The notes under the pieces are model-generated. The model worked only from the letters and a program-made list of their open reading frames with translations. It ran no database searches and was not told where the DNA came from. From NCBI RefSeq assembly GCF_004010195.1, contig NC_057718.1, positions 99,182,060 through 99,202,059 on the forward strand: a stretch of DNA of 20,000 nucleotides. The letters run 5' to 3'. This DNA is from Chiloscyllium plagiosum (Eukaryota). Numbering within the stretch: position 1 is the first letter of the stretch; every line of letters starts with the position of its first letter. Below, piece by piece: positions 1-20,000 of the stretch. The position numbers and the translations under genes are program-made.

Positions 1-203
1 TCTCTGGCTGAAGAAATGTCTCCTCATTTCCGTTCTAAATTGACCCCCTCTAATTTTAAGGCTGTGCCCACTGGTCCTAGTCTCCCCGCTTAATTGAAAC
101 AACTTCCCAACGTTCCCCCTTTCTAACTCATGCATTATCTTGTAAGTTCCTATTAGATCTCTCCTCAACCTTCTAAATTCTAATGGATACAATCCCAGGA
201 TCT
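1..203 (-). mobile_element. CR1-clade LINE, ORF2 C-terminal fragment (decayed, runs off window start)
   Basis: Minus-strand translation gives ILGLYPLEFRRLRRDLIGTYKIMHELE...GETRTSGHSLKIRGGQFRTEMRRHFFSQR, the typical CR1 ORF2 C-terminus. Confidence 0.85.
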
Positions 204-239
204 TGTGAGGGAAATGGATGTTGCTCTACATTTGTGCAG

Positions 240-1010
240 GTGCCCGTTTTGATCTCTTTATTTAAGAAAGCAAATAAATGTCAAAGCCTAGCAGAGAAAT
301 TTCACTTGATTGATACCTGGGGTGACAGGATTATCTATTGAGGAAAGGTTGGACAGGGTGGGTCTGTATCCGTTGGAGCTTAGAAGAGTGACAGTTACTG
401 AGATAGATAAGATCCTGAGGGGACTTGACAGGGTGGATACGGTGAAAGGGTGTCTCCTTCTCATGGGAGAGACTAGAACTGGGGGGGATGCAGTTTAAAA
501 ATAGGGGCTCTCCTGTTTAAGACTGAGAGTAGGAGGATTTTCATTCTTATTTTGAAACTCTGTTTTTGTAGATTAGATTAGCTACAGTGTGGAAACAGGC
601 CTTTGGCCCAGCAATCCCATACTGACCCTCCAAAGAGTAACCCACCCTGACCCAGTTCCCTCTGACTAATGTATCTATAATTCCAGGCAATTTAGCATGG
701 CCAATTCACCTGGCCTGCACATCTTTGAACTGTGGGTGGAAACCAGAGTACCTGGAGGAAACCCACGCAGGCAGAATGTGCAAACAGAGAGTCACCCACG
801 ATTGGGATCAAACCTGGGACCCTGGTGCTTTGAGGCAGCAGTGTTGACCACTGAGCCACCGTGCCGTTTCTCAGAGAATGTTGGAGGGAGGGTCACTTGA
901 ATATTTCCAGGGCAGAAATGAATTCTTGACTAACAAGGGAGTCAAAGGTTATCGGGGGTAGATGTTTAGAGCCCAGTCAGATCTTAATGAATGGCCTACT
1001 CTTTCTCCCA
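240..1010 (+). mobile_element. Old CR1-clade LINE 3' fragment, interrupted by a SINE at about 570-866
   Basis: ORF 310-498 (IPGVTGLSIEERLDRVGLYPLELRR...KILRGLDRVD...MGETRTGG) is a CR1 ORF2 C-terminus. CR1-like sequence resumes at about 868 (tctcagagaat...gtcaaaggttat...gaatggcctact). Confidence 0.8.
570..866 (-). mobile_element. tRNA-derived SINE, HE1-like (elasmobranch)
   Basis: The reverse complement starts ggcacggTGGCTCAGTGG...cagGTTTGATCCC (Pol III A and B boxes) and ends in a CR1-like tail (gggccaaaggcctgtttccacactgtag + ctaatctaatc). Confidence 0.85.
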
Positions 1011-2269
1011 AGTCATGACTTTACATTCAGGGAACCCAATCAAAGATTCTGTGATTATGTTCAATAATCTTTTATTTGATTTCGAGGGAGTCCCTCAACT
1101 TCCTACTTATAAACATAATCTCATACAGGGGTTTAATTGTAAAGACCCAACATGTGATATTTCTCCATCGACAGTTCCTGTACATTGTCCTGCATCGTGT
1201 TATGTATTGTGTAAAAATCGACTTGTGAATGATTTTCAGTGCAGAAGCTGTTTGCAAATGGGGGCTTTAAAAAGTCCCCCCCTTTTGTCCATGCCGCCCC
1301 CCCCTCCCCCCGACCCCCTCCCCTTTAGTCTGGACACTGAGTCATTCATTTTCAAATAATTTTCAATGGCTTCAGAGCAAAGCTAAACACATTCTAACCC
1401 AAAGGCCACATTTATGTAAACAAGTTCATTTCAACTGAGGCAGAGACATTGCTAACCATTGTTAGACATGTGGAAACAAAGGGCAGGCGACGATTAACCC
1501 TATCAGCTTGTGGTGCCTTGAGACTGAGAGGTCAGCTAATAGTCAGCAGTCCAGGGTGGGTAGAGTTTCCCACACTCTCACTGTTGCCTGTTCCCCTTAA
1601 GCTATCTGGTTCTTTATCCTGAATCATGGGGAGTTGCTTTTATCAGTTTACAGCTGTTCCCAGAGAAGTGAAATTGACCACTAAAAGGCTGATTGTCAGA
1701 TATGAAGTAAAGATCAGCTCCTGACACCTTCGGACGGTAAATTGAGCAGGATTGAAAGCAGAGTAGATGGTATTTATAGAAGCAGTTATACTGGCTGAAA
1801 AATGGATGTTAGAGTAGCAGTGAATCCTGAAATATAAAAGGCTTTCCTATTAAGGGTCACTTTAGAAACTGGAAATATCTCCTTGCGTTTCTGAACAACG
1901 TAAATGATAATGATTATATGTACTACAACATTCGCAAGAAATATTTGGGAATTTCCTTAACTGTTTGTTTAACCTATTGAAATCACTGAAAAAAACAGAA
2001 CCGTGTCATTTAGTTATTGCCCATTGCACTGTTGAGAAGAATGAATCTAAAAGCCACAATCTGCACTTAATTTTGTATGGCTCACTCCTGTGGCTTGGAT
2101 GTGGCTCCTCCAGAGAATTGACCACATTGTACATGGTGGTTCTTTTTAGGATGAATTAGATTTTCTTCCAAGCATGGCTGAACGGCTTTACCCCCTCCCC
2201 TTCCAACAGACCAGTCTACATGAAAGAATGGAAAAGCGCAGCAGGTCAGGCAGCATCCAGGGAACAGGA

Positions 2270-2307
2270 GAATCGACGTTTCGGGCATAAGCCCTTCTTC
2301 AGGATTC
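2270..2307 (-). ncRNA. Putative minimal type I hammerhead ribozyme
   Basis: Minus strand reads GAATC-CTGAAGA-A-GGGC-TTAT-GCCC-GAAA-C-GTC-GATTC: helix I GAATC/GATTC, core CUGANGA and GAAA, helix II GGGC/GCCC, palindromic ACGT helix III and a GUC cleavage triplet. Confidence 0.7.
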
Positions 2308-2340
2308 CTGAAGAAGGGCTTATGCCCGAAACGTCGATTC
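2303..2340 (+). ncRNA. Putative minimal type I hammerhead ribozyme (mirror copy)
   Basis: GATTC-CTGAAGA(2308-2314)-A-GGGC-TTAT-GCCC-GAAA(2328-2331)-CGTC-GATTC; helix I has one U-U mismatch at the palindrome axis. Confidence 0.6.
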
Positions 2341-2464
2341 TCCTGTTCCCTGGATGCTGCCTGACCTGCTGCGCTTTTCCAGCAACACATTTCCAGCTCT
2401 GATCTCCAGCATCTGCAGACCTCACTTTCTCCCCTACGTGAAAGAATGGACTAGTACATTTTCC

Positions 2465-2560
2465 TAATCAACCCGTTCAAAGATGTTATTACACACCTCT
2501 GGAGCAGGTGGGACTCAAACTTGAGCCTCCTGGCTCTTGGGTAGGGATACTACCACAAGA
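2465..2560 (-). mobile_element. Short tRNA-like SINE fragment
   Basis: The reverse complement (gtggtagtatccctacc...aagtttgagtcccacctgctccagaggtgtgtaataacatc) matches the + strand copy at 3372-3475. Confidence 0.6.
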
Positions 2561-2619
2561 CCTTTTGGAATGAACCAGGATCTAGATATAATAGAGAGTG
2601 GCTGATGCTCAATGGAGCA

Positions 2620-3085
2620 TATAGAGCCACAGAGGTGTATAACACAGAAACAGACCCTTTGGTCCAACTTGTCCGTATGACCAGATAATTAATCAATTAA
2701 TAATCAATTAATCTAGTCCCATTGGCCCATATCCATCTAAACCCTTCCTATTCATATACCCGTCCAGATGCCTTTTAAATGCTATCATTGTACCAGCCTC
2801 CGCCACTTCCTCTGGCAACTCATTCCATACACATACCATCCTCGGCATGAAAATATTACCCCTTAGGTCCTTTTTAAATCTTTCCACTCTAACCTTAAGC
2901 CTATGTCCTCTAGTTTTAGATTCCCCAACTTCGGAAAAAGACCTTGGCTATTCACCCTATCCATGCCCCTCATGATTTTATAAATCTCTCTAAGGTCACC
3001 CTCAGCCTCCGATGCTCCAGGGAAAACAGGCCCGGCTTATTCAGCCTCTCCCTGTAGCTCAAACCCTCCAATCCCGGCAACATCC
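2620..3085 (-). mobile_element. CR1/HER1-like LINE, 5'-truncated 3' end
   Basis: ORF 2970-3233(-) contains RMLPGLEGLSYRERLNKPGLFSLEHRRLR; the 3' UTR is homologous to the copies at 5070-5484 and 13745-14178. Confidence 0.9.
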
Positions 3086-3114
3086 TAAAAGACTGGTTTC
3101 CTTTGTTTATATTG

Positions 3115-3161
3115 TGCTGTGGTAGTGTCCCTATCCCTGAGCCAGGAGACCTGGGTTCAAG
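3115..3161 (+). mobile_element. SINE 5' (tRNA-like head) fragment
   Basis: gtggtagtgtccctatccctgagccaggagacctgggttcaag: A/B-box-like head similar to 2465-2560 and 3372-3475. Confidence 0.5.
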
Positions 3162-3371
3162 AAATACCCCTACCCCTTTCCCGGCATATCCATCACCTTT
3201 GATGATTGGCATTGCCAATAATAGCCTTTGCACATAGATTAATCAATTAGAAGATTGATTATCATTAACTGGTTAAGAAATACTACAGGTGATTTAGTGA
3301 TGAAGGAAATGTGTTCACTTGCGTGTAAGAGCACTTCTGAATATAAAAAGAAATCAATAAAGGGTGTATTT

Positions 3372-3475
3372 CATGGTGGTGCAGTAGTCCCAACTTCTAA
3401 ACCAGGAGATCTAGGCTCAAGTCCCAACTGCTCCAGAGGTGTATAATAACACGTCTGAACAGGTCAATTAGGAAA
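3372..3475 (+). mobile_element. Short tRNA-like SINE
   Basis: catggtggtgcagtag...ggctcaagtcccaactgctccagaggtgtataataacac; an inverted homolog of 2465-2560. Confidence 0.6.
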
Positions 3476-3960
3476 AGACTGGATTTCAAGGGGCTTTAAA
3501 TGTAAATTCAATCCTCTGCTTCCCCTCCTTTCCTGAGGTTTTACTTGTTTTCAAAACTCGACTCATTTCCCCAATTCCTGCCCCACCCTGTTGTGTGATT
3601 GTTTAGGTTTCATTTAAACATTGTACGTTTATACAATTAAACAACATTATGAAATATGATTTTCAGAGAGAAAGGTGCTACCTCGTCTTCACAGCCTCTC
3701 TGTGGACTGGAGTCAGTGGTCTGTGCTTAGTTAGTTATGTGCACATAATATGTAAGTACAGAGCTCAAACTGCACCAATGCTTTGTTGCTGTCTGCAGAT
3801 ATTTGCAGATGACATCTATATTGCAATAATAGAGATCCCCTACCTATTGCTAGGGACCATGCAAATTCATCAGGACCTTTCAATTAGGAAAGGATTGGGT
3901 TTGTGGCTGACCTCTTGAATACACAGATCCATGGGTAATGAATCCACACACATTAAGAAT

Positions 3961-4274
3961 CCATGGTGGCTCAGTGGCTAGCACGGCTGCCTCACAGCAT
4001 CAGGGACCCATGTTCTATTTCACCCCGGGTGACTGTCCTTGTGGAGTTTGCTTATTCTCTCCATGTCTACATGGGTATCCTTCAAGTGCTTCCTCGTCCA
4101 AAGCTGTGAAGGTTCGGGTGGATGGACAATGCTAAATTGCCTATAGTGTCCAGGAATGTGCAGGTCAGGTGGGTTAGAGAATGAAGGTCTGGATAGGATG
4201 CTCTCCAGAGGGTCAGTGTGGACTCGATGGGCTGAATGGCCTGCTTCCACACTGTAGGGATTCTACGATTCTAT
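3961..4274 (+). mobile_element. tRNA-derived SINE, HE1-like, near full length
   Basis: Head catggTGGCTCAGTGGctagcacggctgcctcacagc, body gtggagtttgc...gctaaattgcctatagtgt, and CR1-like tail gggctgaatggcctgcttccacactgtagg(gattcta)x2. Homologous to 570-866. Confidence 0.85.
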
Positions 4275-5069
4275 AATGAAGTATGACTAGTTAGTGTTGT
4301 TACTAAATCTCAAGACATCTGTCTCAACAAGACTCTGATCTTTGTAGGATATGTTATGTGGACTCAGGGCCATACTTAGTAGTGGCAGTGAAGATTTACC
4401 CAGGAAACCGCATCATGATGGCAACAAGTGAGGACTGTAAGTGAAAGGTGATAGCTGGTTGGTACTACAAGTTGAAAAAGTGAGGCAGCTGTTCTTTTTA
4501 CATCAGGCATTCTTCCTCACTTACCTGAGCTCACAGCTGAATTTATAACGACAACCAAGACGCAAGGCTAAAATCTGCATTGAAGTCAGAAATATGTGTG
4601 AGCATTCTGTCTCTTTAAAAAAAGCGATAAGACAGAACCGATCTGATTTTCAGAAAAAGGCAAATTTGCAAATACTGAAAGACAGCTTCAACCTACCAAA
4701 GTGCTCCTTGACCAAATTATAGAAAAATACACTGAACAAAACCTATCCAGTATCTAAAAGGTCTTCCCCCGTGTCCAAGCACCTGCTGCTTCTGCCATCT
4801 TGCTTCTTCAAAATGGCGTGAAAAATTTTTAAAAATGCATGACATCACAACTTTCCCAAACACTAGCCATTGGGATCAACCTACAACTTGTAAAGATACA
4901 ATGTCAAAACAGAAAAAAACCCCAGCAAAACCTAAAAAGAAAAGAATAATTACTATGTCACTGCAATTTTCTATCCCAGCAATTTAAAGAACTGATACAA
5001 AACAATCTTCAAGCAATGATTCATAATCCATTGACATCCTGACAGAATTTCAGCTATTTAGAGAAATGC

Positions 5070-5484
5070 AGAGAGATTGAATAGTCTAGGGCTGTTTTCT
5101 CTGGAGCATCAGAGGCTGAGAGGTGATGTTATAGAAGTTTATAAAATCATGAGGGGCATGGAAACGATGAATAACCAAGGTCTTTTTCCCAGAGTCCAAA
5201 ACTAGAGGGCATAGGTTGAAGGTGAGAGGAGAAAGATTTAAAAGGGACCTAAAGGGGCAACGTTTTCACACAGAGGGTGGTGCGCGTATGGAATGAGCTG
5301 CGAGAGGAAGTGGTGGAGGCTGGTACAATGACAACATTTAAAAGGTATCTGGACGGGTATATCAATAGGAAGGGTTTAGACGGATATGCTGGCAAATGGG
5401 ACTAGATTAACTTAGGATATCTGGTTGTCATGGGCAAGTTGGACCGAAGGGTCTGTTTCCGTGCTGTACATCTCTATGATTCTA
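5070..5484 (+). mobile_element. CR1/HER1-like LINE, 5'-truncated 3' end
   Basis: Encodes ERLNSLGLFSLEHQRLRGDVIEVYKIMRGM; ends in ggaccgaagggtctgtttccgtgctgtacatctctatgattcta. Confidence 0.9.
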
Positions 5485-6216
5485 AAGAACCAGTCTTAAT
5501 TCCTCAGACCAATGAAAACTTAATCAAAAAAATACGCATTCAAGCTCCTTATTGCTTTGGGAATCAAAGGACTTAAACGAGTCAAGTCCTCTGATATTTA
5601 ATATGATGAGCACAAAGATCCTGATAAAACATTGAATGTTTCAGGTGACAAAGTAGAAATTTAAGTTAACTCCAATATACACAAGTTTGAGAAGATGACA
5701 ATGATAAGTAAAACAATTGACCACTGTGCAGGTAAGTGACACCAGAAAGTCAAGGAATATGATTTCACCAAGATCACTTGAACTCGTCATTATCTTTACT
5801 GTCATTAGATTGTTCAGAAAGACCCTTCTCGAAGAAGCTGAAGAATCTGCTGTGGGTGTACTGATGAAAGAAGGACATTGGATGAAGTAATTGCAGGAGC
5901 ACAGTAAAATCTTCAGGTCCTTGACTACACAACTGCTCTTGCAGCCATGAACAGCATCATTAGCATATCCAGCTCTTAAAGCAACTTGGCTCTAAAAGCA
6001 ATAGCATGTTCTTAAAATTTGACACTTCAGAAATGAACTTGGCTTCAAAGCTTCTATTTAGTATGTTTGGCGTGGTTTAACAGGTATTAGAGAATGTTAA
6101 TTACTGAGGAAGTGTAGACCAGGTACTGGATATAATTACAGACTACATTTGACAAAGGAAAAGCCAAATGTTAATAGTTATCCCTCCACTGTCCAAATGG
6201 TCACTTAAAGCTCATA

Positions 6217-6380
6217 AAGTCAGAGTCATACAGCACAGGGCAGACACTTTGGTCCAACCAGTCCATGCCGAACATAATCCCAAACTAAACTAGTCCTACC
6301 CTGCTGGCTCCTGGCCCATATCCCTCCAAACCTTTCCTATTCATGTATCTATCCAAATATCTTTAAAACATTGTAATTGT
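6217..6380 (-). mobile_element. CR1/HER1-like LINE extreme 3' fragment
   Basis: agtcagagtcatacagcac...ttggtccaac...ggcccatatccctccaaacctttcctattcatg, homologous to the start of 13745-14178. Confidence 0.8.
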
Positions 6381-6944
6381 GTTTCCTTTTAGAATTTATC
6401 TCCAGAATCGCTCGTTGTGAATGGCTTGTTGTTGTTGCCAGCCCGTTTCCAAGTGTGTTCCAAATGACGTTTGTATTTTTCCTGCTCGAGGCATATTTAT
6501 CCAGCTCTAGGTATACTGCTCCAGATTTACTTATCCTGCTCGAGATTTACTGCTCTAGGGTATACTAAGACAGCACTTTCCTTCAGAAAGCAACAATCAT
6601 TTTGAAATATTAATCTGGGAGTTATAAAGATTTGAAAGGAAGAAAGCATCAGCATTTATTTTGGGCTTTTTATATCCTATGAGTATACATATAGCATCAC
6701 CTTGTGCATAGTTGTGATTCTTATCAAATGTAATTATCAAAGTCAGTTTGCAATAATTTTCATTTAAGTGCTTAATGTTGTAAGCAGTATTTCAGTTTCT
6801 AAGCAAAACTGGCCCATTGGTCAGCACTTGACGTAGTTGGTTGGGCAGCATTCAGTATTTGTCAGTTGTGAGTCCTCAAAATCTACCCCAAAGTGTGGGT
6901 GTGCATGAGTAGCTTAATCATGTTGAATGGTGGGGGAGATTGCT

Positions 6945-7125
6945 GGGTACTAATCCTGGAACTCTCTCTCTCAGAACACTGTGGGGTATACATAAACCAT
7001 ACGAATTGCAGTGGTTCAAGGAAGTGTCCTAATACCCCTCTTCTCTTGGGCAATTAGGGATGGGCAATAAACATTGGTCCAGCCTGTAACATTCATGGAT
7101 GTCATTTACATTCTGTGAGTGAGCA
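6945..7125 (+). mobile_element. Old LINE (CR1/L2-like) 3' end fragment
   Basis: atcctggaactctct...gcagtggttcaag...gggcaattagggatgggcaataaa resembles a LINE 3' end I recognise from shark genomes (recall, not a search result). Confidence 0.55.
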
Positions 7126-7769
7126 ATAGTAAGGTTCGAGGGGTGGATGGCCCATACCCATTTCTCATCTCCTGATCTTTACCATTCTGATCTCTTCTGT
7201 TTTTCCTTCTGCCACTTCCACATGAACAGATGCCGCCGATAATTCCACTGTCTGATAGACTGGGCTGTCAACATTTGGCAAAGGCTAGGTCTGAGATTTA
7301 TGTTTGTGAGTCAGCTACAGTAGGGTGGTGTCACCCTCCACCTGAATCTTATCTGTCTTTTGTACAGCAGCCCACGCATAGGGTGGGGTGATAAGGACAC
7401 CCTGGAATCCGAAAGTGAGACGGGGCAATGATCGTGGTGTAAGGCAAATATTTTTTGAATGCTGTCCAAACCCATGATCCAATGAACATTGGGAAAAGCT
7501 TCCAGTGCACCAAGAAACCTGGTGATAGCATGTGAAGCTTCCTACAACACAGGTCTACATTAAGTCACATGCCACTTTTCCCTTAGCTTTCATGACCCAG
7601 CCCCTGGGTAGTTTTGTGATGTTCAGGCCCTCAACAGTGTTCTTTAAGCTCACTATTCTCGAGAGGCAAACAAGGTAATAGGAGGTGCTCGTAATGCTGA
7701 GTTTAATTAAAAGGTAACTGCAATTAAATTCAAAGCTCCTGGCCAATCAATGGTTTTCTTTACAGACTA

Positions 7770-7955
7770 ATGTGGCACATAATTCAGCCCATTCTGCTCT
7801 TCTAAATGCTGTCCAATTTGACCTGTCACCTGCCTTCTCCCCATAACCTTACAAATTTAACCCTTTTCATTACTTTTCCAATTCCGTTTCTCATCTGTTT
7901 CCACAATCCTTTTTGAAGTGGATTTTAGATTACAAGACATCTTACGTAAAAGTAC
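7770..7955 (-). mobile_element. Very decayed CR1-like 3' fragment
   Basis: attcagccca...cctgccttctccccataacctt...ttttccaattcc pattern of an antisense CR1 3' end; heavily diverged. Confidence 0.35.
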
Positions 7956-7959
7956 TGAT

Positions 7960-8647
7960 TGTAACGAGGTCAGCCAGGTTGATCTCATAGAATATGAGTT
8001 CCCTGATTGGGGCTATTAATCTGGTCCAATCAGGGAGCCCTGGCTGACAGATAAGAACAGGAGTGTGCCAACTGGCTGCCCCTCTTCCGCAGTTACATTA
8101 GCGCCCAGGTGTCTCTGGAAAAGGAGCACGTGGTGTCCACCGACACCCTAGAGTTGTTCAGGGAGAGGTGGGTGCCGCAGGGAGTTGAGTGTATTATTTC
8201 CCCCTCCAACTCTATTTTGATTTGATCCCTGCCCTCCCCTTCACTGTTTGATCACGCAGCATTGCCCTTTGATGTGAAGGGGACGGCTTGTCACAGGCCA
8301 CTCGGGTGTTTCCTTTCTTCCTGGCGGTGGAAATCTGAAGAAAGATTCGTGCACCTTGTGTCTCTCACTGTGTCTCACACCTGTACACACACAACGTGGG
8401 GGCTGGGGGAAATATAAGAAAAAAAAAACAAGAATGTCTTGGTCTTTCTGACAGCTGGCTCTGAGGGAGCTGGATCGGTACCAAGGACTCTCCATGTGTA
8501 ATTAAAAAAAAGAAAAAAAAGAAAAGAAAAAAAGTAAAGAAAAAAAAAGGAGTGTGTAAGGTTCTGTACATCCTGAGAGCTGGTTCTGAGACAGCTGGAC
8601 CAAAGGCGACTTGGTGATGGGATACCAGCCTTCATGGAGTTATTTCA
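7960..8647 (+). mobile_element. Solo LTR (about 200 bp; 7960-8067 + 8557-8647) split by a LINE insertion
   Basis: Begins TGTAAC and ends TTATTTCA (TG...CA with a weak terminal inverted repeat); contains inverted CCAAT boxes and a TATA-like gataagaa. No clean TSD is visible. Confidence 0.6.
8068..8547 (+). mobile_element. 5'-truncated L1/Tx1-like non-LTR retrotransposon with A-rich tails and TSD
   Basis: Open frame 8067-8225 (ANWLPLFRSYISAQVSLEKEHVVSTDTLELFRERWVPQGVECIISPSNSILI*) resembles a Tx1 ORF2 C-terminus. A-tails at 8419-8428 and 8504-8548; TSD aggagtgtg at 8059-8067 / 8548-8556. Confidence 0.75.
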
Positions 8648-9030
8648 CTATCATTTCATTTCTGGTCCTTTTACCAATTACCTCGAATCTTGAATTTTGG
8701 TGAATAGAGAGGCATGTTGCTGAAATGTCCAACTTGCACTAATCAGGGCTACAACACAAGAATGTCACATTTTTAAATCATTGTAACAATTGACACTTTG
8801 AGAGAACAGGATCATGATTGGTTAATACCTTGACTCACATTGGCTGAGGCAATCTTGCTGAGAAAGCAATGTAGATCCTTAGCTCCTGGATAATTCAAAA
8901 AAAGGTGGAAGGCTATTCCTCCTGCTTGCTGAGAATGGGGCCCTGCACATGAATAAGTGACAATTCTAACAAACATAAATGAGACAATTTGTGAATTTAC
9001 AGATTTTACCTTCAACTAATTGTTAGTGTC

Positions 9031-9260
9031 AGCAGAACAGGAATTGCTGGGAAAGCTCAGCAGGTCTGGCAGCATCTGTGGAGAGAAACCAGAGTTAGTG
9101 TTTCTGAGTTACAGGATCAGAACAGTTCTGAGGAACGGTCACTGGACCCCAAGTGTTAAGTTTGATTTTTGTCCACACTGCTGTCAGGCCTGCTGAGATT
9201 TTCCAGCAATTTTTGTTTTTGCTTCTGATTTCTAGCATCTGCTGTTCTTTTAGTTTTTAT
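9031..9260. mobile_element. Old Penelope-like element with decayed inverted arms
   Basis: Imperfect inverted repeat 9042-9074 / 9179-9211; hammerhead remnant CTGAGGA..GGTC-actg-GACC (9128-9150); tail tctgatttctagcatctgc similar to the 2397-2417 tail. Confidence 0.65.
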
Positions 9261-9739
9261 TTGGTTGTTAGTGTAACTTATAGCACACTCGGGGTTCTTC
9301 AACAGTGCTGACCAGTTTTATAATCGCATGTAACAATGAAAGTTTTGATTTGAGTTTTACAAGTGTGGCTTGGCTGAGTACAGCCTGTACTTTGCCTTTT
9401 ACAGACAAGAACATGTTGTTTGATTTGACCGGGGAGTTATGGCCCATATAACCAACATCGTAACTACGTTGGAATTTACACAGCACGTTGTTCAATTGTA
9501 TGGTAGACAGTACATCATTTTGGACTAATAGAGCACTCTGTTAGTAGAAAATTTGGCTTATGCAGCTATGTTCCTCCATGCCTAATTATTGACCTTTTGG
9601 CTTTGACATCAGCAGAGTTGACTTACGAGGTCCTTAATAGTGTCTAATTAGACACTTGCCCACAAGTTATAGATAGCCATTTCCCCTCCCAAACAAGCAT
9701 GTTCTAAAAGAGGCTCAATAATTTATAAGAGGGATCACC

Positions 9740-9803
9740 AGAATTGTTAACTCTGCTTCTCTCTCCATTGGTGCTGCCAGACCTACTAAGTATCTCCAGC
9801 AAT
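9740..9803 (+). mobile_element. Penelope-like fragment interrupted by CR1
   Basis: gttaactctgcttctctctcc...gctgccagacctactaagtatctccagcaat resembles the right arm of 9031-9260; continues as ttctgtt after 9945. Confidence 0.5.
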
Positions 9804-9945
9804 GACGGCTATGTGAACCGGAAGGGTTTAAAGGGAACTGGCCCAAAAGTTGGCAAATGGGATTAGATTAATTTAGGATATCTGGTCCGCATGGACGAGT
9901 TGGACTGAATAGTCTGTTTCCATGCTGTACATCTCTATGACTCTA
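9804..9945 (+). mobile_element. CR1/HER1-like LINE extreme 3' fragment
   Basis: Homologous to 5350-5484; ends in gctgtacatctctatgactcta. Confidence 0.85.
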
Positions 9946-9983
9946 ATTTCTGTTCTCGTTTGTTCCCAATAATTCAGCGCAGA

Positions 9984-10060
9984 CTGCCTGAAACATCATC
10001 TCTCCTGCTCCTCGGATGCTGCCTGACCTGCTGTGCTTTTCCAGCACCACACTCTCGATC
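9984..10060 (+). mobile_element. Penelope-like single arm, same family as 2229-2433
   Basis: tgcctgaaacatc...tctcctgctcctcggatgctgcctgacctgctgtgcttttccagca closely matches 2323-2384. Confidence 0.7.
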
Positions 10061-10169
10061 CCCAGGTGTTAGTGGTAGTTTTGCACGAGAGAGTGCTGGC
10101 AAGCACATGATAACTGGCGAGCAGGAAGTTATGGTTATCTGACTCCATTCCATCTGAAGATACTAACTA

Positions 10170-10630
10170 TAATCAGGAGTGGGCCGTTCAGCCCCTCAAT
10201 CTGCTGTTCAATCAGGTCATAGCTTATCTCTGAACAATAACCTTTCACCCCTTGCTTATTGAAAACCAATCCACCTCTGCCTAAAAATATTCAGATTCTT
10301 CTTTCACCATATTTTCAAGAGAGTTCCACAGACCATGTAAGAAAAATAACCTTCCAAATACTGTCCTACATAGGCAATCCTTTAATTTTCTTTCTACATT
10401 CTTCCAGAAGAGGAAACTATCTCAGCTCATCTACCCTGTCATAGCCCCTCAGGATCTTCCATGTTTAAAATCAAGCTCCCTCTTCTGCTTTAAAGTCCAA
10501 TCAAACCCTTCCTCAAAAAACACTCCCCTGCCCCAATCCACACTCCCCCCTCTCCCCCCCCCAGGTTTAGATATTATTCTTGTAGATGTTTCTGATGCAT
10601 TTACATCCTTTCTTATGTACCAGGACCTCC
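10170..10630 (-). mobile_element. Ancient CR1-like LINE 3' portion (decayed)
   Basis: caggagtgggccgttcagcccctc...; the minus strand contains WYIRKDVNASE (CR1 PYLRKDV..LE-like). Confidence 0.55.
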
Positions 10631-10990
10631 GACAGCAAGGGGGCAATGCTGAGAGAGGCCAGACAAAGTTGTTGAATTGACTTTTTCAGGAAAGAAAGAG
10701 TGTCTTTGGTGGGTAGAGGGCTGATGGAAATGGGGAGCAGTCAGACAAAGCAAGCTTGTCGTGCCAATGTAACCCACACGATAATTTCACATACACTTTG
10801 CTAATAGTTCCTTGTTTATTGTTAACTTCCCCTCATCTCTGTAATGACCTGATGCCAGAGGAAGTGAGAATCCTTGCTTCATGATCTTTGGGTCATCTGT
10901 GTGTTCAAATCTCACTGTACACTTCAATAAGTAGACTAATACTGTACACAATACTCCAGATATGATCTCACTAATGCCCTGTAGGACAGA

Positions 10991-11345
10991 GTTGTATAAA
11001 GTTAAAAATCACACAATTGTTAAAGTGCACTTGAGAATGTAACTTTTAAAAAAAGTTTTGCGATTTACATATGAAAGAACTGAAACCAACATGGTCTTTC
11101 TAAAAGATGAGAGACTTAACAAATAAGCAGGGTCTTTTTCAATATATAATTTCAGTTACACCACACTGGAAACTTTTGCTATAATTTCTGTGTCTTACAA
11201 TTTTATTCTCCACAACCACCTGATGAAAGAGCAGTGATCTGAAAGCCAGTGCTTCCAAATAAACCTGTTGGACTATAACCTGGTGTTGTGTGATTTTTAA
11301 TTTTGTCCACCCCAGTCCAACACCGGCATTTCCAAATCATGACTA
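10991..11345 (+). mobile_element. Penelope-like element (second family) with a short 5' inverted piece and TSD
   Basis: Hammerhead-like CAC-CTGATGA-a-AGA..TCT-GAAA-gcca-GTG (11217-11251), then AATAAA. 10998-11016 is an 18/19 inverted match of 11286-11304. Flanks are ctgtaggacaga (10979-10990) / ctgtatgacaga (11346-11357). Confidence 0.7.
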
Positions 11346-11362
11346 CTGTATGACAGATACAT

Positions 11363-11983
11363 TTTTATGGACCAGGCCAGATCCCCTCAAAACATTTCAA
11401 GACAGTAGTCTGGACCCTAACGTTGCTAGTTGTTTTAAGCAGGGGGTAAGTGGATAATTCAGGAGGGATGCAGCTGGTCAAACCATTTAGTTTTAAACAT
11501 AAACAGAAGAGAACGGAATACAGAATGACTTAACCTGTCCAAAACCCCAACAGATTATCCCGAGTTAATGATGCTGTTCCAAGTTCCTTCAACAATCCCC
11601 ATAAACACCTCTTGGTAAAAAAGAAAAAATCAAACACATGGCAGAGATATTCAACATAGAACACCTTCTTCCATGTAGCTGTTTCTTGGAACAGCAGCCT
11701 CGAAACTGACTGCTTTCAGTGTCCAGGCAGACTGCTCAAACCAAACCAAACCAAATCAGGGAAAAGCTGAGCTGGGAGAACTGGCCACGTCCCTTTCATT
11801 GTACAAGTGGTTTTTTAAAAAAAAGTTGAAAGCCTTTTGCATGAGCCAGTATCTGTTAGCTCTAATCAAACTGGCCCCTAAAACCCATCCAAACCAGACC
11901 TCTCAGAATCATTGCTTTTACGATCTCTCTAAAAAAAAATGTTAAGGACAGCATAACCTTGTTAATGGAGCAACATCATCATA
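11363..11983. mobile_element. Probable old solo LTR-like insertion
   Basis: Non-CR1 block interrupting an antisense CR1 that is visible at 10940-10985 and resumes at about 11985; degenerate TG..CA-like ends and no clear TSD. Confidence 0.35.
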
Positions 11984-11984
11984 C

Positions 11985-12610
11985 TTTACATTCCTAGCTT
12001 TATATTCAATTCCACTTGCAATGATCTGTAACTTTCTTTCCTGAAACACAACATGCACAAGGCTACAGAGATCCTGTGTCTTAGAGCGCTGCAATCTCTC
12101 ATGACTTAAATAAAATGCTTTTTAAAATTCTTCCTTCGCCAATTTGACATGTTTGCACATTGTACACTATTTGCCAGATCTTTACCCATTCACTTAACCT
12201 ATCTCTACCTCTTTGTAGTCTCTCCTTCTACCCTCTTCACTATTTATTTTCCTCTCCATCTTTGTGTCACCAATAAAGTTAGTACCATTCCTCTGGTTGT
12301 TTCAGCCAAGCCATGTGTATTAATTGCAACTGAGGTTATCAAATGGAAAATGACCCATTTATGCCTGCTCTCTGTTTGCGTGCCAACCTCCCAGCTGGAT
12401 AAATATGTTAGCCCCTACCTGATGAGCTTGAATTTTCCGTGGTATCCTCTGATGTGACACCTTATCAAATGCTTTCTGAAAGTTTAAGTACAGTACATCT
12501 ATTAATTCCCTTTATTAACAACACAAGTTAACTCAGCAAGAAAATCCACTAAATTGGCTAAGCATGATTTCTCTTTCTCTGAAGCCATGTTGACTCAGCA
12601 TGATTAGCTC
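11985..12610 (-). mobile_element. Ancient CR1 LINE reverse-transcriptase region (decayed)
   Basis: Minus strand around 12420-12600 gives SQHGFRE... and DVLYLNFQKAFDKVSHQRIPRKIQAH, the CR1 RT motifs QHGF and DFxKAFDKV. Confidence 0.85.
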
Positions 12611-12779
12611 TCTACCAGTTTGAAAATTCAGCCCTGGATTGTGTGTGCTAGCACCTCTCCCCATGTCCTCAACATGCCAAGTCATGGGACTGGGGGGATA
12701 TCAGTGACTGTGCTCCTTTGAACTTGCTTTGGCAAGGGTCTATTTGTTGCCTCACAAAACGTGATAAAGGCTTATGATG

Positions 12780-13620
12780 TATCATTTCTACCATTTGGAA
12801 ATGTGGGTTCTAAAATGCACAAACCAGGTATAGCTTTAAGTTTGATTTATATATCTATACTTTGTGCGTTATGAATGGAAGGGCATGGTTTGAATGTCAT
12901 TTAAAATTTGTTCTGAGTGGCACTTGAACATCCAAAGTTAGTTGATTTTTAGTGAAGACTTGTAGCAGAGCTTGAGGTGAATAGTTCAGTGCATTAGAAA
13001 CAAGCATAGAAGCAAAATACTGCTGTTGATGAGCAACAGGAGTCCAGTATCAGAGAAACACAGGAACAGTCCGCAGGTTGAAAAGGTGTGCAGGCTCAGT
13101 CACACTAAAGGGTTGCTGTTAATTAGTAGTTTTCAAAAAGTCAAAACTGGGGAATAACTCCAGAGTGGATTAGAAGAAGAGTTCAATAGCAGAAAACGGG
13201 TGGATGTTGAAGATATGGAAAACCCTATGTGTTATTTTGAAAGTCTTTAGAGATTAGTCAGAAGAACACTCCAGAATGTAATTGCAGCTTTGTCAACTGA
13301 ACAAAGGACTCTAACATAGAGATAGGATGGCCCTTCGCTGTGGTTTGAGTATTTGTAGAGTTGTTGTTGAGGTAAAAGGTTTAAATCTTTATTTATGATA
13401 TGTGAAATAAGACAATTTCAAATAGTTCTTGTGTAGTGTAAATAAATTCATTGTTTTTCCTTTTGTACATGGTAACCTTGATGTCTTTTTGTTGAAAGTA
13501 CAATTACAGCCCCTTCTGAACATGACTAATTAACATAACTAAAGGAAAAGTAAAAATTATGATCTTTCAAGCCAAGTTTCTCACACCCAGCCACATCACA
13601 TTTTCTGGCCTCGAGCAGCC
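12780..13620 (+). mobile_element. Possible decayed LTR-like repeat
   Basis: AATAAA at 13441 with T-rich downstream sequence and an end segment (attatgatctttcaagccaagtttc) reminiscent of shark LTR 3' ends; boundaries uncertain. Confidence 0.25.
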
Positions 13621-13744
13621 TTTGACAGGACTGATGAATATTTTCTTTAATGCACGTTGTAATTTTAAAGAAAGGATTCACAGATTTTTAAATTTTAAAA
13701 CTATCCATTCAACAATGGATCCTTTAGCTTGTTACATACCTTAC

Positions 13745-14178
13745 AGTCATAGAGTCATCGAGATGTACAGCACAGAAAGAGACCCTTCAGTCCAACTCAT
13801 CCATGCCGACCAGATATCCCAACCTAATCTAGTCCCATTTGCCAGCACTTGGCCCATATCCCTCTAAACTCTTTCTATCCATGTACCCATCCAGGTGCCT
13901 GTTAAATGCTGTAATTGTACCAGCCTTCACCACTTCCTCTGGCAGCTCATTCCATACACAGACCACTCTCTGCGTGAAAAAGTTGCCCCTCAGGTCCCTT
14001 TTAAGTCTTTCACCTCAAACCTATAACCTCGAGTTTTGGATTCCCTCACCCTGAGGTAAAAAAGCCTTGGTTTTCACGCTATCCATGCCCCTCATGATTT
14101 TATAAACCTCTATAAGGTCACCTCTGAGGCTCCAGGGAAAATCGTGCTGACCTATTCAGCTTCTCCCCAGCAACGTCC
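13745..14178 (-). mobile_element. CR1/HER1-like LINE, 5'-truncated 3' end
   Basis: Reverse complement of the same family as 5070-5484 (agtcatagagtcatcgagatgtacagcac...ctcatgattttataaacctctataaggtcacc). Confidence 0.9.
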
Positions 14179-14280
14179 TCATTTAATTTTTTTCTGAGTG
14201 GTGTTTTCCGGTGCTCGTTGATTTTTCCCAAGCATCAGGCGTTGTGCGATAATAGTGCAAGGGTTTGTTAAATCCACAGG

Positions 14281-14505
14281 CTTTACAGAAGCACCTGATG
14301 TTTGTAGCTCTGTGTGTGTGTGTGTGTGTGCGTGTGTGTGCATGTGTTTGTGTGTGTGTGATCGGAGGTTGCTGGACAAGAAACTACATGCAAATGGCAA
14401 TATATACCTGCACTCACAGAATAGGCCACCCATAGCTTTGTTTGTGATGAGTCAGAAGGTACACTCTGTTGTGTCAGAGGGTGGGCAGGAGCCAGGAGTT
14501 CACCA
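14281..14505 (+). repeat. Left arm of a long inverted repeat
   Basis: 14361-14420 matches the reverse complement of 15360-15419 at 58/60; homology extends to ctttacagaagcac on one side and to ...gagggtgggcagg...cacca on the other. Confidence 0.9.
14311..14360 (+). repeat. Imperfect (TG)n microsatellite
   Basis: About 25 dinucleotide units with a few interruptions. Confidence 0.95.
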
Positions 14506-14689
14506 TCCGAAGTGAAAGATGAAAAGCCGATTCACCAGCGACAGCAGCGTAAAAGAGTCTGAAAATAAGCTGAACTGTGACCGGGAGGTATAGCAGGTCA
14601 ATCAGCTGCATGAAGAGAGATACATTTGCAATCTCAACAGTGGTGCTAAATATTCTCAATTCACAAATGCAAAGCAGTTGTAAACAGCT

Positions 14690-14980
14690 GAAGGTTTAGC
14701 AAGCAGAGGTCACGGATTTGACAAAAAGAGCTAACGTGAGGCAAAAAAGCTTTTGGTGCAGCAGATGGTCAGGGTTAGGGTTGTGCTGCTCATCGAGCTG
14801 GTGATCACAGACTCAATAGAAAGCATTCAAAAATAACCTGGTTAAGTTCTTGGAGGCACACTTTGTGACATGGATGTGGGGCTGAGAGAAGGGGAGTGAG
14901 AATGAATGGAGCGTTTTTGAAAGAGCCACCACAGGCTTGATGGGCCAAATGACCTCCTTCTGCTCTGAACCATTCTAAAA
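14690..14980 (+). mobile_element. Ancient CR1-like 3' end inside the inverted-repeat spacer
   Basis: Ends in aaagagccaccacaggcttgatgggccaaatgacctccttctgctctgaaccattcta, a typical CR1 3' hairpin/tail. Confidence 0.65.
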
Positions 14981-15274
14981 CATCAACCTTTGCAGCCAGG
15001 GTAGCACACTGAGGCTGGGTGACTTGGGAAGGGGGGGGAGGGGGTTCCAGCTCCAGAATTATGAGCAGATGAGGTCCAATTTTAACCGACTCAAAACTCA
15101 TCCACGACTGCTGCTGTAAACTATTCCTGTCACGATCTGTTGTCTTAGTCAGCCACAGGGATCTCTCTTACACCATCTCCAACTGCTCTGTCGCATCCAA
15201 TGTCCCTCTTTTTACTCCTCTCCCTCCACCTCGTCCCCTCGAAGCAATCTCTTTTCTTCACTCAGCGCGTCTCC

Positions 15275-15466
15275 TGGTGGAGTTCTGAGCCCTGCCCACC
15301 CTCTGGCACAACAGAACGTACCTTCTGACTCATTACAAACAAAACCATGGACAGCCTCCTCTGTGAGCGCAGGTATACATTGCCATTTGCATGTAGTTTC
15401 TTGTCCAGCAACCTCCGATTACACATGAAAAGCTACAAATATCGGGTGCTGTGTGCTTCTGTAAAG
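15275..15466 (-). repeat. Right arm of the long inverted repeat
   Basis: Reverse complement of 14281-14505, lacking the expanded (TG)n. Confidence 0.9.
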
Positions 15467-15689
15467 ACAAGTGACTGACAAATTGGTACTTGGTTTTCAG
15501 GATGTCACCCTTTTAGAATTCTCTGTACTCTTTCAGTTTCAATCATCTCCTTATAGGCCTCATGGCCTGTCTATGGCATTTGTAACCCACAGCTTAGTAT
15601 CTGCATTGTAAAGGGCTCCACAGAGCTTTACGTAACAACAATGGTCAAGTTAACATCAGGCACATAATTTCAGCTGGCACTGAGAGCAT

Positions 15690-16568
15690 AGTACTGAGGG
15701 CAGGACTGTAACATCGTACTGAGGGCAGGACTGTAATGCCGTGCTGGGGGCAGGACTATAACACTGCACTGAGGGCAGGACTGTAACACTGTAATGAGGG
15801 CGGGACTGTAACGCTGTACTGGAGGACGGGACTGTAACACCATACTGGGGCCGGACTGTAACACTGTTCTGAGGGTGGGATTGTAACACCGTACTGAGGG
15901 CAGGACTGTAACACTGCACTAAGGGCAGGGCTGTAACACCGTACTGGGGTGGGACTGTAACGCTGTACAGAGGGCGGGACTGTAACACAGTACTGGGGCC
16001 GGACTGTAACATCGTAGTGGGGGTGGGACTGTAACACCGTAGTTGGGGGTGGAACTGTAACACCACTCTGGGGGTGGGACTGTAACACTGTACTGAGGGC
16101 AGGACTATAACACCGTACTTGGGGAGGGACTGTAATGCTGTAATGAGGGTGGGACTGTAACGCCGTACTGGCGGGCGGGACTGTAACGGCATACTGAGGG
16201 TGGAACTGTAACGCTATACTGAGGGCGGGACTGTAACACTGTATTGAGGGCAGGAATGTAATGCCATACTGCTGTGGGGACTGTAACACTGTACTGGGGG
16301 CAGGACTGTAACGCCACACTGAGGAAGAGACTCTAAAGCTGTACTGGGCTGGGGTATGTAATGCCATCTTGGAGTGGGGACTGTAAAGTCACACTGGGGA
16401 CAGGTCTGTAACACCGCACTGAGGGCGAGTCTGGAACGCTGCACTGAGGGCAGGACTGTAACATGTACTGCTGTGGGGACTGTAACGCCATATTGGGGTG
16501 GATACTGTAATGTCGTACTGTGGGCGGAACTGTAATGCTGCACTGAGGATGGAACAGTAATGCTGTAA
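15690..16568. repeat. 25-bp tandem satellite, subfamily A (consensus approx. CTGTAACACTGTACTGAGGGCAGGA), about 35 diverged units
   Basis: ggact(g/a)taa recurs at 15703, 15728, 15753 and onward (period 25). Confidence 0.95.
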
Positions 16569-16589
16569 GAGCCAAAATAATACTATATT

Positions 16590-19500
16590 AAGGAAAACAC
16601 TATAATACTGTATTGAGAGAGCAAAAGCAATGCTGTACTGAGGGAGAGACTGTAATGCTGTAGTGAGGGAGACACTGTATCACTGTGCTGAGGGAGAGAC
16701 TGTAACGCTGTGCTGAGGGAGATACTGTAATGCTGTACTGAGGGAGACACTGCAAAGCTATACTGAGGTAGATGCTGTAATGCCGTATTAAGGGAGACAC
16801 TGAAGTGCTGTAGTGAGGGAGACACTGTAATGCTGTACTGGGGGAGACACTGTAATGCTGTACTGAGGGAGACACTGTAATGCTGTACTGAGATAGATAC
16901 TGTAATGCTGTAGTGAGGGAGACGCGGTAATGCTGTAGTGAGGGAGACATTGTAATGCTGTACTGAGAGAGACACTGTAATGCTGTACTGAGGGAGACAC
17001 TGTAATGCTGTACTGAGATAGATACTGTAATGCTGTAGTGAGGGAGACGCGGTAATGCTGTAGTGAGGGAGACATTGTAATGCTGTACTGAGAGAGACAC
17101 TGAAGTACTGTAGTGAGGGAGACACCGTTATGCCGTACTGAGGGAGACATTGTAATGCTGTACTGAGGGAGACATTGTAATGCTGTACTGAGGGAGACAC
17201 TGTAATGCTGTACTGAGGGAGACACAGTAGCACTGTGCTGAGGGAGGGACTGTAGTGCTGTAGTGAGGGAGACACTGTAATGCTGTACTGAGGGAGACAC
17301 TGTAGTGCTGTAGTTTGAGAGACACAGTAATGCTGTACTGAGGGAGACACTGTAGCACTGTGCTGAGGGAGGGACTGTAATGCTGTAGTGAGGGAGACAC
17401 TGTAATGCTGTGCTGAGGGAGAAACTGTAATGCTTTAGTGAGGGAGACGCGGTAATGCTGTACTGAGGGAGACACTGTAATGCTGTAGTGAGGGAGAAAC
17501 TGTAATGCTGTGCTGAGGGAGACACTGTAATGCTGTAGTGAGGGAGACGTGGTAATGCTGTACTGAGGGAGACACTGTAGTGCTGTACTGAGGGAGACAC
17601 TGTAATGCTGTACTGAGGGAGACACTGTAATGCTGTACTGGGAGAGACACTTTAATGCTGTACTGAGGGAGACACTGTAATGCTGTACTGATGGAGAGAC
17701 TGTAGAGCTGTAGTGAGGGAGACACTGTAATGCTGTGCTGAGAGAGACACTATGATGCTGTACTGAGGGAGACATTGTAGTGCTGTAGTGAGGGAGACAC
17801 GGTAAGCTGTACTGAGGTAGATACTGTAATGCTGTAGTGAGGGAGACGCGGTAATGCTGTAGTGAGGGAGACACGGTAATGCTGTACTGAGGGAGACACT
17901 GTAGCACTGTGCTGAGGGAGAGACTGTAATGCTGTGCTGGGGGGAGACACTGTAAAGCTATACTAAGGTAGATGCTTTAATGCTGTATTGAGGGAGACAC
18001 TGTAATGCTGCACTGAGGGAGACACTGTAATGCTGTATTGAGGGAGACACTGTAATGCTGTACTGAGAGAGACACTTTAATGCTGTACTGAGGGAGACAC
18101 TGTAATGCAGTACTGAGGGAGAGACTGCAGTGCTGTAGTGAGGGAGACACTGTAATGCTGTACTGAGAGAGACACTGTGATGCTGTACTGAGGGAGATAT
18201 TGTAGTGTTGTAGTGAGGGAGACACGGTAAGCTGTACTGAGGTAGATACTGTAATGTTGTACTGAGGGAGACACTGTAGCACTGTGCTGAGGGCGACACT
18301 GTAATGCTGTACTGAGGGAGACACTGTAATGCTGTGCTGAGGGAGACACTGTAATGCTGTAGTGAGGGAGACGCAGTAATGCTGTACCGAGGGAGACACT
18401 GTAGCACTGTGCTGAGGGCGAGACTGTAATGCTGTACTGAGGGAGACACTGCAATGCTGTACTGAGGGAGAGACTATAATGCTGTAGTGAGGGAGACCTG
18501 GTAATGCTGTAGTGAGTGAGACACTGTAGTGCTGTAGTGAGGGCGACATTGTAATGCTGTACTGAGATAGATACTGTAATGCTGTGCTGAGGGAGATACT
18601 GTAAAGCTATACTGAGGTAGATGCTGCAATGCTGTACTGAGGGAGACACTGTAATGCTGTAGTGAGGGAGACACTGTCAACCTATACTGAGGTAGATGCT
18701 GTAATGCTGTGCTGAGGGAGACACTGTAATGCTGTAGTGAGAGAGACACTTTAATGCTGTACTGAGGGAGACACTGTAATGCTGTACTGAGAGAGACACT
18801 GTAGCGCTGTACTGAGGGAGACACTGTAGTGCTGTACTGAGGGAGACAATGTAATGGTGTACTGAGGGAGACACTGTAGTGCTGTACTGAGATAGATACT
18901 GTAATGCTGTGCTGAGGGAGATACTGTAAAGCTATACTGAGGTAGATGCTGCAATGCTGTACTGAGGGAGACACTGTAATGCTGTAGTGAGGGAGACACT
19001 GTAGTGTTGTAGTGAGGGAAACACTGTAATGCTGTACTGAGGGAGACACTGTAAACCTATACTGAGGTAGATGCTGTAATGCTGTGCTGAGGGAGACACT
19101 GTAATGCTGTAGTGAGAGAGACATTTTAATGCTGTACTGAGGGAGACACTGTAGTGCTGTAGTGAGGGAGACACTGTAATGCTGTACTGAGAGAGACACT
19201 GTAGCGCTGTAGTGAGGGAGAAACTGTAGTGCTGTAGTGAGGGAGACACTGTAATGCTGTACTGAGGGAGACACTATAAACCTATACTGAGGTAGATGCT
19301 GTAATGCTGTGCTGAGGGAGACACTGTCATGCAGTACTGAGAGAGACACTGTAGCGCTGTACTGATGGAGACACTGTAGTGCTGTACTGAGGGAGACAAT
19401 GTAATGGTGTACTGAGGGAGACACTGTAGTGCTGTAGTGAGGGAGACACTGTAATGCTGTACTGAGAGAGACACTGTAGCGCTGTACTGATGGAGACACT

Positions 19501-20000
19501 GTAGTGCTGTACTGAGGGAGACAATGTAATGGTGTACTGAGGGAGACACTGTAGTGCTGTAGTGAGGGAGACACTGTAATGCTGTACTGAGGGAGACACT
19601 GCAATGCTGTACTGAGGGAGACACTTTAATGCTGTAGTGAGGGAGACGTGGTAATGCTGTAGTGAGTGAGACACTGTAGTGCTGTAGTGAGGGAGACACT
19701 GTAATGCTGTACTGAGGGAGACACTGCAATGCTGTACTGAGGGAGACACTTTAATGCTGTAGTGAGGGAGACGTGGTAATGCTGTAGTGAGTGAGACACT
19801 GTAGTGCTGTAGTGAGGGAGACACTGTAATGCTGTACTGAGGGAGACACTGCAATGCTGTACTGAGGGAGACACTTTAATGCTGTAGTGAGGGAGACGTG
19901 GTAATGCTGTAGTGAGTGAGACACTGTAGTGCTGTAGTGAGGGAGACACTGTAATGCTGTACTGAGGGAGACACTGCAATGCTGTACTGAGGGAGACACT
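16590..20000. repeat. 25-bp tandem satellite, subfamily B (consensus CTGTAATGCTGTACTGAGGGAGACA), about 136 units, runs off window end
   Basis: Uninterrupted 25-bp periodicity with recurring variant units; 125-bp higher-order repeat at the right end. Confidence 0.98.

Follow-up and report, generated by a model that had tools for sequence, protein, structure and literature searches.

Insertions of Penelope-like elements (PLEs) are 5′-truncated and often have an inverted truncated copy beside the 5′ end (Craig et al. 2021, PMC8557442). In a rotifer PLE the inverted pLTR is 37 bp shorter than the direct ones, duplications of 8-10 bp are found, and the head-to-head junctions are palindromic, which was explained by self-priming (Arkhipova et al. 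2013, PMC3846280). Minimal hammerhead ribozymes sit in the pLTRs of PLEs and are sometimes paired on opposite strands; a monomer showed no cleavage and dimers showed weak cleavage (PMC4209133), and dimer cleavage of PLE hammerheads by Luense et al. is described in a review (PMC6765202). The protein of an anole PLE nicks and extends both strands and was modelled as a dimer, with a cDNA start downstream of the hammerhead and no requirement for hammerhead cleavage (Frangieh et al. 2024, PMC11167929); our own subtraction from those data places the cDNA start of this element, PAc, 85-92 nt past the hammerhead cut. For Penelope-like elements the literature already documents inverted 5′ copies, palindromes at the junction and hammerheads paired on opposite strands. 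Self-priming has been proposed as the origin of the inverted ends (PMC3846280), and later steps are left unvalidated in PMC11167929.

The locus studied is an inverted-arm insertion at 2216-2450 of the window, the whole 20,000-nt stretch of DNA that was analysed, and very probably represents a PLE stump to which an inverted pLTR is attached. Four of 24 listed public sequencing runs were mapped on positions 1650-2620 at 85% likeness, three DNA-type (X1, X5 and X13) and one RNA (X22). X1 and X5, the latter a second sample, are from organism A, X13 is from a related species, organism B, and X1 may be the source sample of the window. The features of the locus are:

2216..2232, plus strand: left target-site duplication of 17 nt, ending in the 4 nt TGGA that also form the outer end of the short arm
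2229..2304, minus strand: short inverted arm, mirror of 2306-2381 with a head-to-head joint, 100% complementary over 76 nt; left junction contained in a contig of run X1 (1650-2255)
2275..2302, minus strand: core of a minimal type I hammerhead within the short arm, by descriptor match, predicted cut after 2275, helix I of 5 pairs and a G.U
2305, no strand: axis base T inside a native A-T-T just 5′ of the hammerhead core; loose ends before 2304 in three runs
2304..2433, plus strand: long arm, the hammerhead-headed end piece (about 130 nt) of a Penelope-type family, by contig mapping with loose-end clusters at 2304 and 2432/2433
2308..2335, plus strand: minimal type I hammerhead core of the long arm by descriptor match and published consensus line, predicted cut after C2335
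2434..2450, plus strand: right target-site duplication, 17 nt, by repeat comparison, with CG where the left one has CA

Sequence comparison of the two arms (2229-2304 and 2306-2381) confirmed the mismatch-free 76-bp palindrome around 2305 that had been noticed in the letters, as well as the 17-bp flanking repeat with a single CpG-type difference (16/17 identical). By chance, such a 17-nt repeat would lie no more than 10 nt from both ends with a probability of about 4e-6, and with the arms lying head-to-head the proposed inverted-end insertion with a target-site duplication stands. The element is asymmetric, as the long arm overruns the palindrome by 52 nt to 2433 (128 nt counted from 2306), so that an inverted arm of 76 nt faces a direct arm of 128-130 nt whose 5′ end adjoins the inverted copy. 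MITEs and other DNA transposons are defined by inverted repeats at both termini, and this class was rejected on the right 52 nt (2382-2433), which are without a mirror at the left end.

We wrote a strict descriptor for type I hammerheads and ran it on the 20 kb, with 200 dinucleotide shuffles of positions 1-15600 as control. It matched only 2308-2335 (+) and 2302-2275 (−), the shuffles giving a mean of 0.015 matches and a maximum of 1, and the predicted core on each strand is thereby borne out, the two matches being one sequence and its mirror and not independent. A loose hammerhead pattern alone was not significant, its 8 matches being reached in 10/200 shuffles. The plus-strand core consists of CUGAAGA, an unpaired A, a 4-bp helix II with a UUAU loop, GAAA and a palindromic ACGU replacing helix III, and it agrees with the core CUGANGAH ... 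GAAAN-NUH, the G10.1-C11.1 pair and the unpaired base before helix II. With positions 15.2/16.2 palindromic and helix III absent in the monomer, self-pairing of ACGU (−1.7 kcal/mol) makes a dimer helix possible; the dimer hammerhead was not adopted by an unconstrained two-strand fold of the motif. Helix I has 4/5 pairs on the plus strand, with one U.U mismatch, and 5/5 on the minus strand, just as had been proposed, and about 3 pairs plus a mismatch in the native family. The accompanying proposal that the palindrome axis supplies the 5′ strand of helix I was not supported: copies match through A2304 in the loose-end data, 4/5 letters of the plus-strand 5′ helix are native, and the inversion contributes only G2303 (and a G2302 wobble). 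The perfect minus-strand helix I arises because GATTC is nearly self-complementary.

A search with hammerhead models, which the sequence-only reading had recommended, succeeded in part, our strict descriptor being positive on both strands and Rfam giving no hammerhead family among its 9 matches at E up to 1. The Rfam hammerhead models expect a full helix III. Metagenome, prokaryote-genome and viral contigs gave 0 matches each to a 30-letter hammerhead pattern, which is what a vertebrate repeat should give. The long-arm motif fits the consensus line of the Penelope-associated minimal hammerheads in the supplement of PMC4209133, and the same CUGAAGAA...GAAA-C-G-U-C pattern is seen there in fish entries marked as PLE-linked, in agreement with the earlier assignment to Penelope-type minimal hammerheads; a shark entry was found neither in the part of the alignment examined nor by a term search of two of the three supplement files.

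The number of contigs mapped was 98,798 for X1, 63,736 for X5 and 68,461 for X13, with nearly all depth on the long arm. Summed depth was 1-10 million over 2211-2441 compared to about 9-18 on the left flank, and although depth is not a copy number, this shows that the family is very abundant in both organisms. Among the best 18 of 1360 rows of loose-end data, contigs ended at 2432/2433 in all three DNA-type runs (X1 1115+479, X5 650, X13 1180+467) and before 2304 in the same runs (X1 607, X5 422, X13 534), and consensus agreement beyond both points was 0.34-0.36, as for unrelated flanks. Many copies therefore span about 2304-2433, and the 3′ end of the family at 2432/2433 lies 97-98 nt past the predicted hammerhead cut. 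The cluster at 2304 is partly forced by the native sequence stopping there in this reference, and some copies extend upstream of 2304, since the same six letters close the loose-end consensus of each of the three runs. It is the long arm of about 130 nt that appears to be the recurring unit. The open 40-codon frame of the arm, a short query and hence a weak test, gave no protein match among 3 candidates, none at E up to 0.001 among 1.84 billion representatives, and no link to an RT/GIY-YIG frame. From the RNA run X22, of which about 6% was read, too little for an expression test, 0 reads fell on 1650-2620. No title or abstract within the literature search described a shark palindromic PLE family, most subscription papers and the repeat databases lying outside that search.

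Two more head-to-head insertions with duplications occur in the same window. The one at 9020-9274 is an older hammerhead element of a related family, with arms 69% alike, an axis (A9124) that precedes a decayed core at 9128 by four bases, and a perfect 10-nt duplication (9020-9029 / 9265-9274). The other, at 10979-11357, has the same layout and belongs to another family, with an 11/12 duplication, a short inverted copy of the 3′ part at about 10991-11016, a core-like CTGATGA at 11220 and about 200 nt of extra upstream sequence. Single-arm remnants lie at 9985-10060 (85% to the long arm over 67 nt, 9985-10051) and 9720-9803 (74% over 39 nt, 9764-9802), and for neither was a duplication found; the former has a variant 3′ part, the same as that of loose ends at 2389/2397 in the mapped runs. 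The window further contains a 25-bp tandem array of two sub-types at 15691-20000, which runs off the window end (about 34 and 136 copies; 72% and 83% matches), a short dispersed repeat at 2459-2533 and 3402-3476 in two inverted copies 79% alike with high depth in three DNA-type runs, and 151-nt inverted repeats at 14355-14505 and 15275-15425, 87% alike and 769 nt apart, which may be DNA transposon ends. Copies of one dispersed repeat are found in both orientations at 2622-3085, 5090-5484, 9804-9945 and 13750-14132, 79-87% alike, presumably LINE tails.

The insertion is young, as had been supposed. A contig of organism B follows the window from 1650 up to the last base of the left duplication, 2232, with 25 substitutions in 583 nt of flank, and then leaves the reference for 42 letters. 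In an empty site these 42 letters would correspond to 2451-2492, and the contig would stop close to the point from which 31-letter words lie entirely within the repeat 2459-2533. The suggested look for an empty site in a relative is thus answered by an exact break point, from which we infer the empty site itself. The filled site is seen in X1, possibly the source sample, whose contig 1650-2255 covers unique sequence on the left and the outermost 27 nt of the short arm with 1 other letter; X5, the second sample of organism A, has no cover at 2149-2210. At the divergence between the two organisms, 76 identical pairs would have P = 0.035. At 2350 and 2393, 98% of the depth of organism B and 63-71% of that of organism A have letters other than those of the window (best 40 of 113 difference rows); the rarity of the window letters in B also speaks for a recent insertion, and they mark a subfamily that grew in the lineage of organism A.

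Arm junctions of other copies were taken from the best 15 of 837 joints, of which 13 left-to-right joints were kept and two, one strand change and one joint in the neighbouring repeat, were set aside; copies with this same axis give no joint, and the counting in X1 is incomplete. In 10 of the 13 listed joints one arm ends at 2300-2315, the 5′ edge of the hammerhead, and in those joints the end of the other arm varies between 2336 and 2409. A single one of the 13 is symmetric. With such variable joints among those listed, the stopping points of the two arms are therefore independent and junctions vary from copy to copy, the present copy being the case where both arms reached the 5′ edge of the hammerhead. 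Several junction contigs have a depth of 100-350, compared to 9-13 for the single-copy flank; this depth gives no copy number, and it may come from amplified palindromic composites or simply from repeat words where contigs end. The replicating unit is probably not the palindrome itself, and the claim of a palindromic unit of roughly 200 nt spreading as such was not borne out, as arms meet at many places.

For a transcript of the whole element, folding models predicted that the hairpin beats the best hammerhead-keeping fold, the margin being 56.5 kcal/mol on the plus and 53.3 kcal/mol on the minus strand, and that the probabilities of helices I and II round to 0, while the isolated motif came within 0.6 (−) and 3.6 (+) kcal/mol of its optimum. 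The antisense arm is transcribed before the core on either strand and there is therefore no early window for the ribozyme. By these predictions the ribozyme is switched off in through-transcripts, and not in competition with the double-stranded hairpin as the sequence-only reading supposed. Double-stranded RNA would be expected if the locus were transcribed. A role in siRNA production and cruciform formation, the latter plausible for a perfect 76-bp palindrome, are possibilities that would be side effects. A sigma-70 scan was set aside as irrelevant to a vertebrate.

Three other explanations of the locus were weighed. If the whole palindrome of about 205 nt were a non-autonomous element, transcribed and re-inserted with a fixed axis as originally thought, the clean duplication bounding the element would be accounted for, and in its favour are also the second element in the window with its axis 4 nt before the core compared to 3 here, older axis-spanning copies such as 2265-2376 with 15 other letters, and the depth of some other junction contigs. 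This is nevertheless unlikely given the wide variation of the listed junctions. Loose ends do not cluster at 2229 in the best 18 of 1360 rows, where 2304 and 2432/2433 are strong, although the test has little power, left-arm pieces fitting at two places; the outer end of the short arm is a 4-nt match to this very target; and the whole RNA, with a stem of about −170 kcal/mol, would probably be a poor template.

A selected or functional hairpin, acting as a self-silencing ribozyme or as an siRNA or miRNA source restraining the family, would draw on the perfect 76-bp stem predicted to form from either strand and on the small RNAs yielded by PLE copies in a rotifer (PMC3846280). It is very improbable, as the insertion is apparently absent in the related species and so not conserved, youth alone explains the perfect arms, and a crude pattern scan found no TATA or pol III B-box in 2100-2500. 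Eight of the 9 Rfam matches (E up to 1) were miRNA models lying on the hairpin, all below gathering with 24-55 bits against cut-offs of 94-104 (the best 54.7 against 97), and a miRNA precursor was rejected, these being hairpin artefacts. The least credible of the three is that the mirror arm, or its perfection, is an artefact of assembly or polishing. Inverted PLE structures do trouble assemblies (PMC8557442), and among the contigs listed there is none that covers the element in full and none of 99% identity that crosses the axis or the right junction; yet the X1 contig enters the short arm from unique flank, albeit in what may be the source sample, and a true insertion agrees with both the duplication and the point where the organism B contig breaks off.

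The element is most likely a Penelope-like stump whose inverted short arm was built during this insertion. The insertion would be made by a Penelope-like RT/GIY-YIG protein, whose endonuclease would nick both strands 17 nt apart. The bottom-strand 3′ end would prime cDNA at the usual start of the family (2433), extending to the 5′ edge of the template before the hammerhead (2304), and the top-strand 3′ end TGGA would pair with UCCA at 2378-2381 of the template RNA and give a second cDNA up to the same edge. The two cDNA ends could then be joined through one A-T pair, with repair filling in the duplication, and the product would be an inert by-product from which read-through RNA forms a 76-bp hairpin burying the ribozyme. 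Alternatively, the first cDNA may have been copied by fold-back, closed by the same 4-nt match, which fits this copy. Within the stump reading the balance tips slightly towards two-ended priming, and fold-back is less favoured because it predicts symmetric junctions, which are rare among those listed. Two of the 13 listed joints (best 15 of 837) start again at 2336, immediately past the predicted cut, with a crude P of about 0.012 for a position chosen after seeing the joint table, which makes it a lead only. The joints at 2336 in other copies are 2257-2336, 2299-2336 and a backward joint 2392-2336.

A wider proposal, which we hold only tentatively, is that the family is a genome-scale record of PLE integration, in which both nicks prime cDNAs on a hammerhead-headed non-autonomous RNA of about 130 nt and these are joined head-to-head, a minority of templates starting at the cut (2336). 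If true, it would be genomic evidence that minimal hammerheads cut in vivo, and it would replace the published proposal of self-priming on antisense for inverted pLTRs. The single locus matters little, being one of very many dead-end copies, and its value is that of a clean, young example. With an abundant family, young copies and inferred empty sites in a relative, the origin of inverted ends and the in vivo role of the hammerhead can be addressed by junction counting.

Compared to known systems, the motif resembles the minimal PLE hammerheads of PMC4209133 in its CUGANGA-H core, G10.1-C11.1 pair, unpaired base before helix II, palindromic 15.2/16.2, lack of loop 3, short helix I and opposite-strand pairing. 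It differs from them in a helix II of 4 bp and in cores that are 5 nt apart, where the opposite-strand pairs described there are about 100-700 bp apart. The non-LTR retrozymes (Li et al. 2026, bioRxiv 10.64898/2026.07.22.740005) are likewise non-coding and PLE pLTR-derived with a type I hammerhead, but those are head-to-tail tandems with at least 2 hammerheads on one strand; the arms here are head-to-head, and with one core per strand and no tandem array at the element this class was rejected.

The anole Poseidon PAc (PMC11167929) has its cDNA start at a similar distance past the hammerhead, 85-92 nt compared to 97-98 nt here, and both strands are nicked and extended there, which fits two-ended priming here. 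PAc is however autonomous, the likeness is one of layout, and reverse transcription of PAc starts without target homology, in contrast to the 4-nt target match at the end of the short arm here. The element lacks the ORF and the second direct pLTR of EN+ PLE insertions (PMC3846280, PMC8557442), keeping only about 130 nt of the end, and its 17-nt duplication is longer than the 8-10 nt of the rotifer elements (PMC3846280). It has in common with EN+ PLE insertions the shorter inverted copy placed head-to-head at the 5′ end, the junction palindrome, strong 5′ truncation, a target-site duplication and a defined 3′ end.
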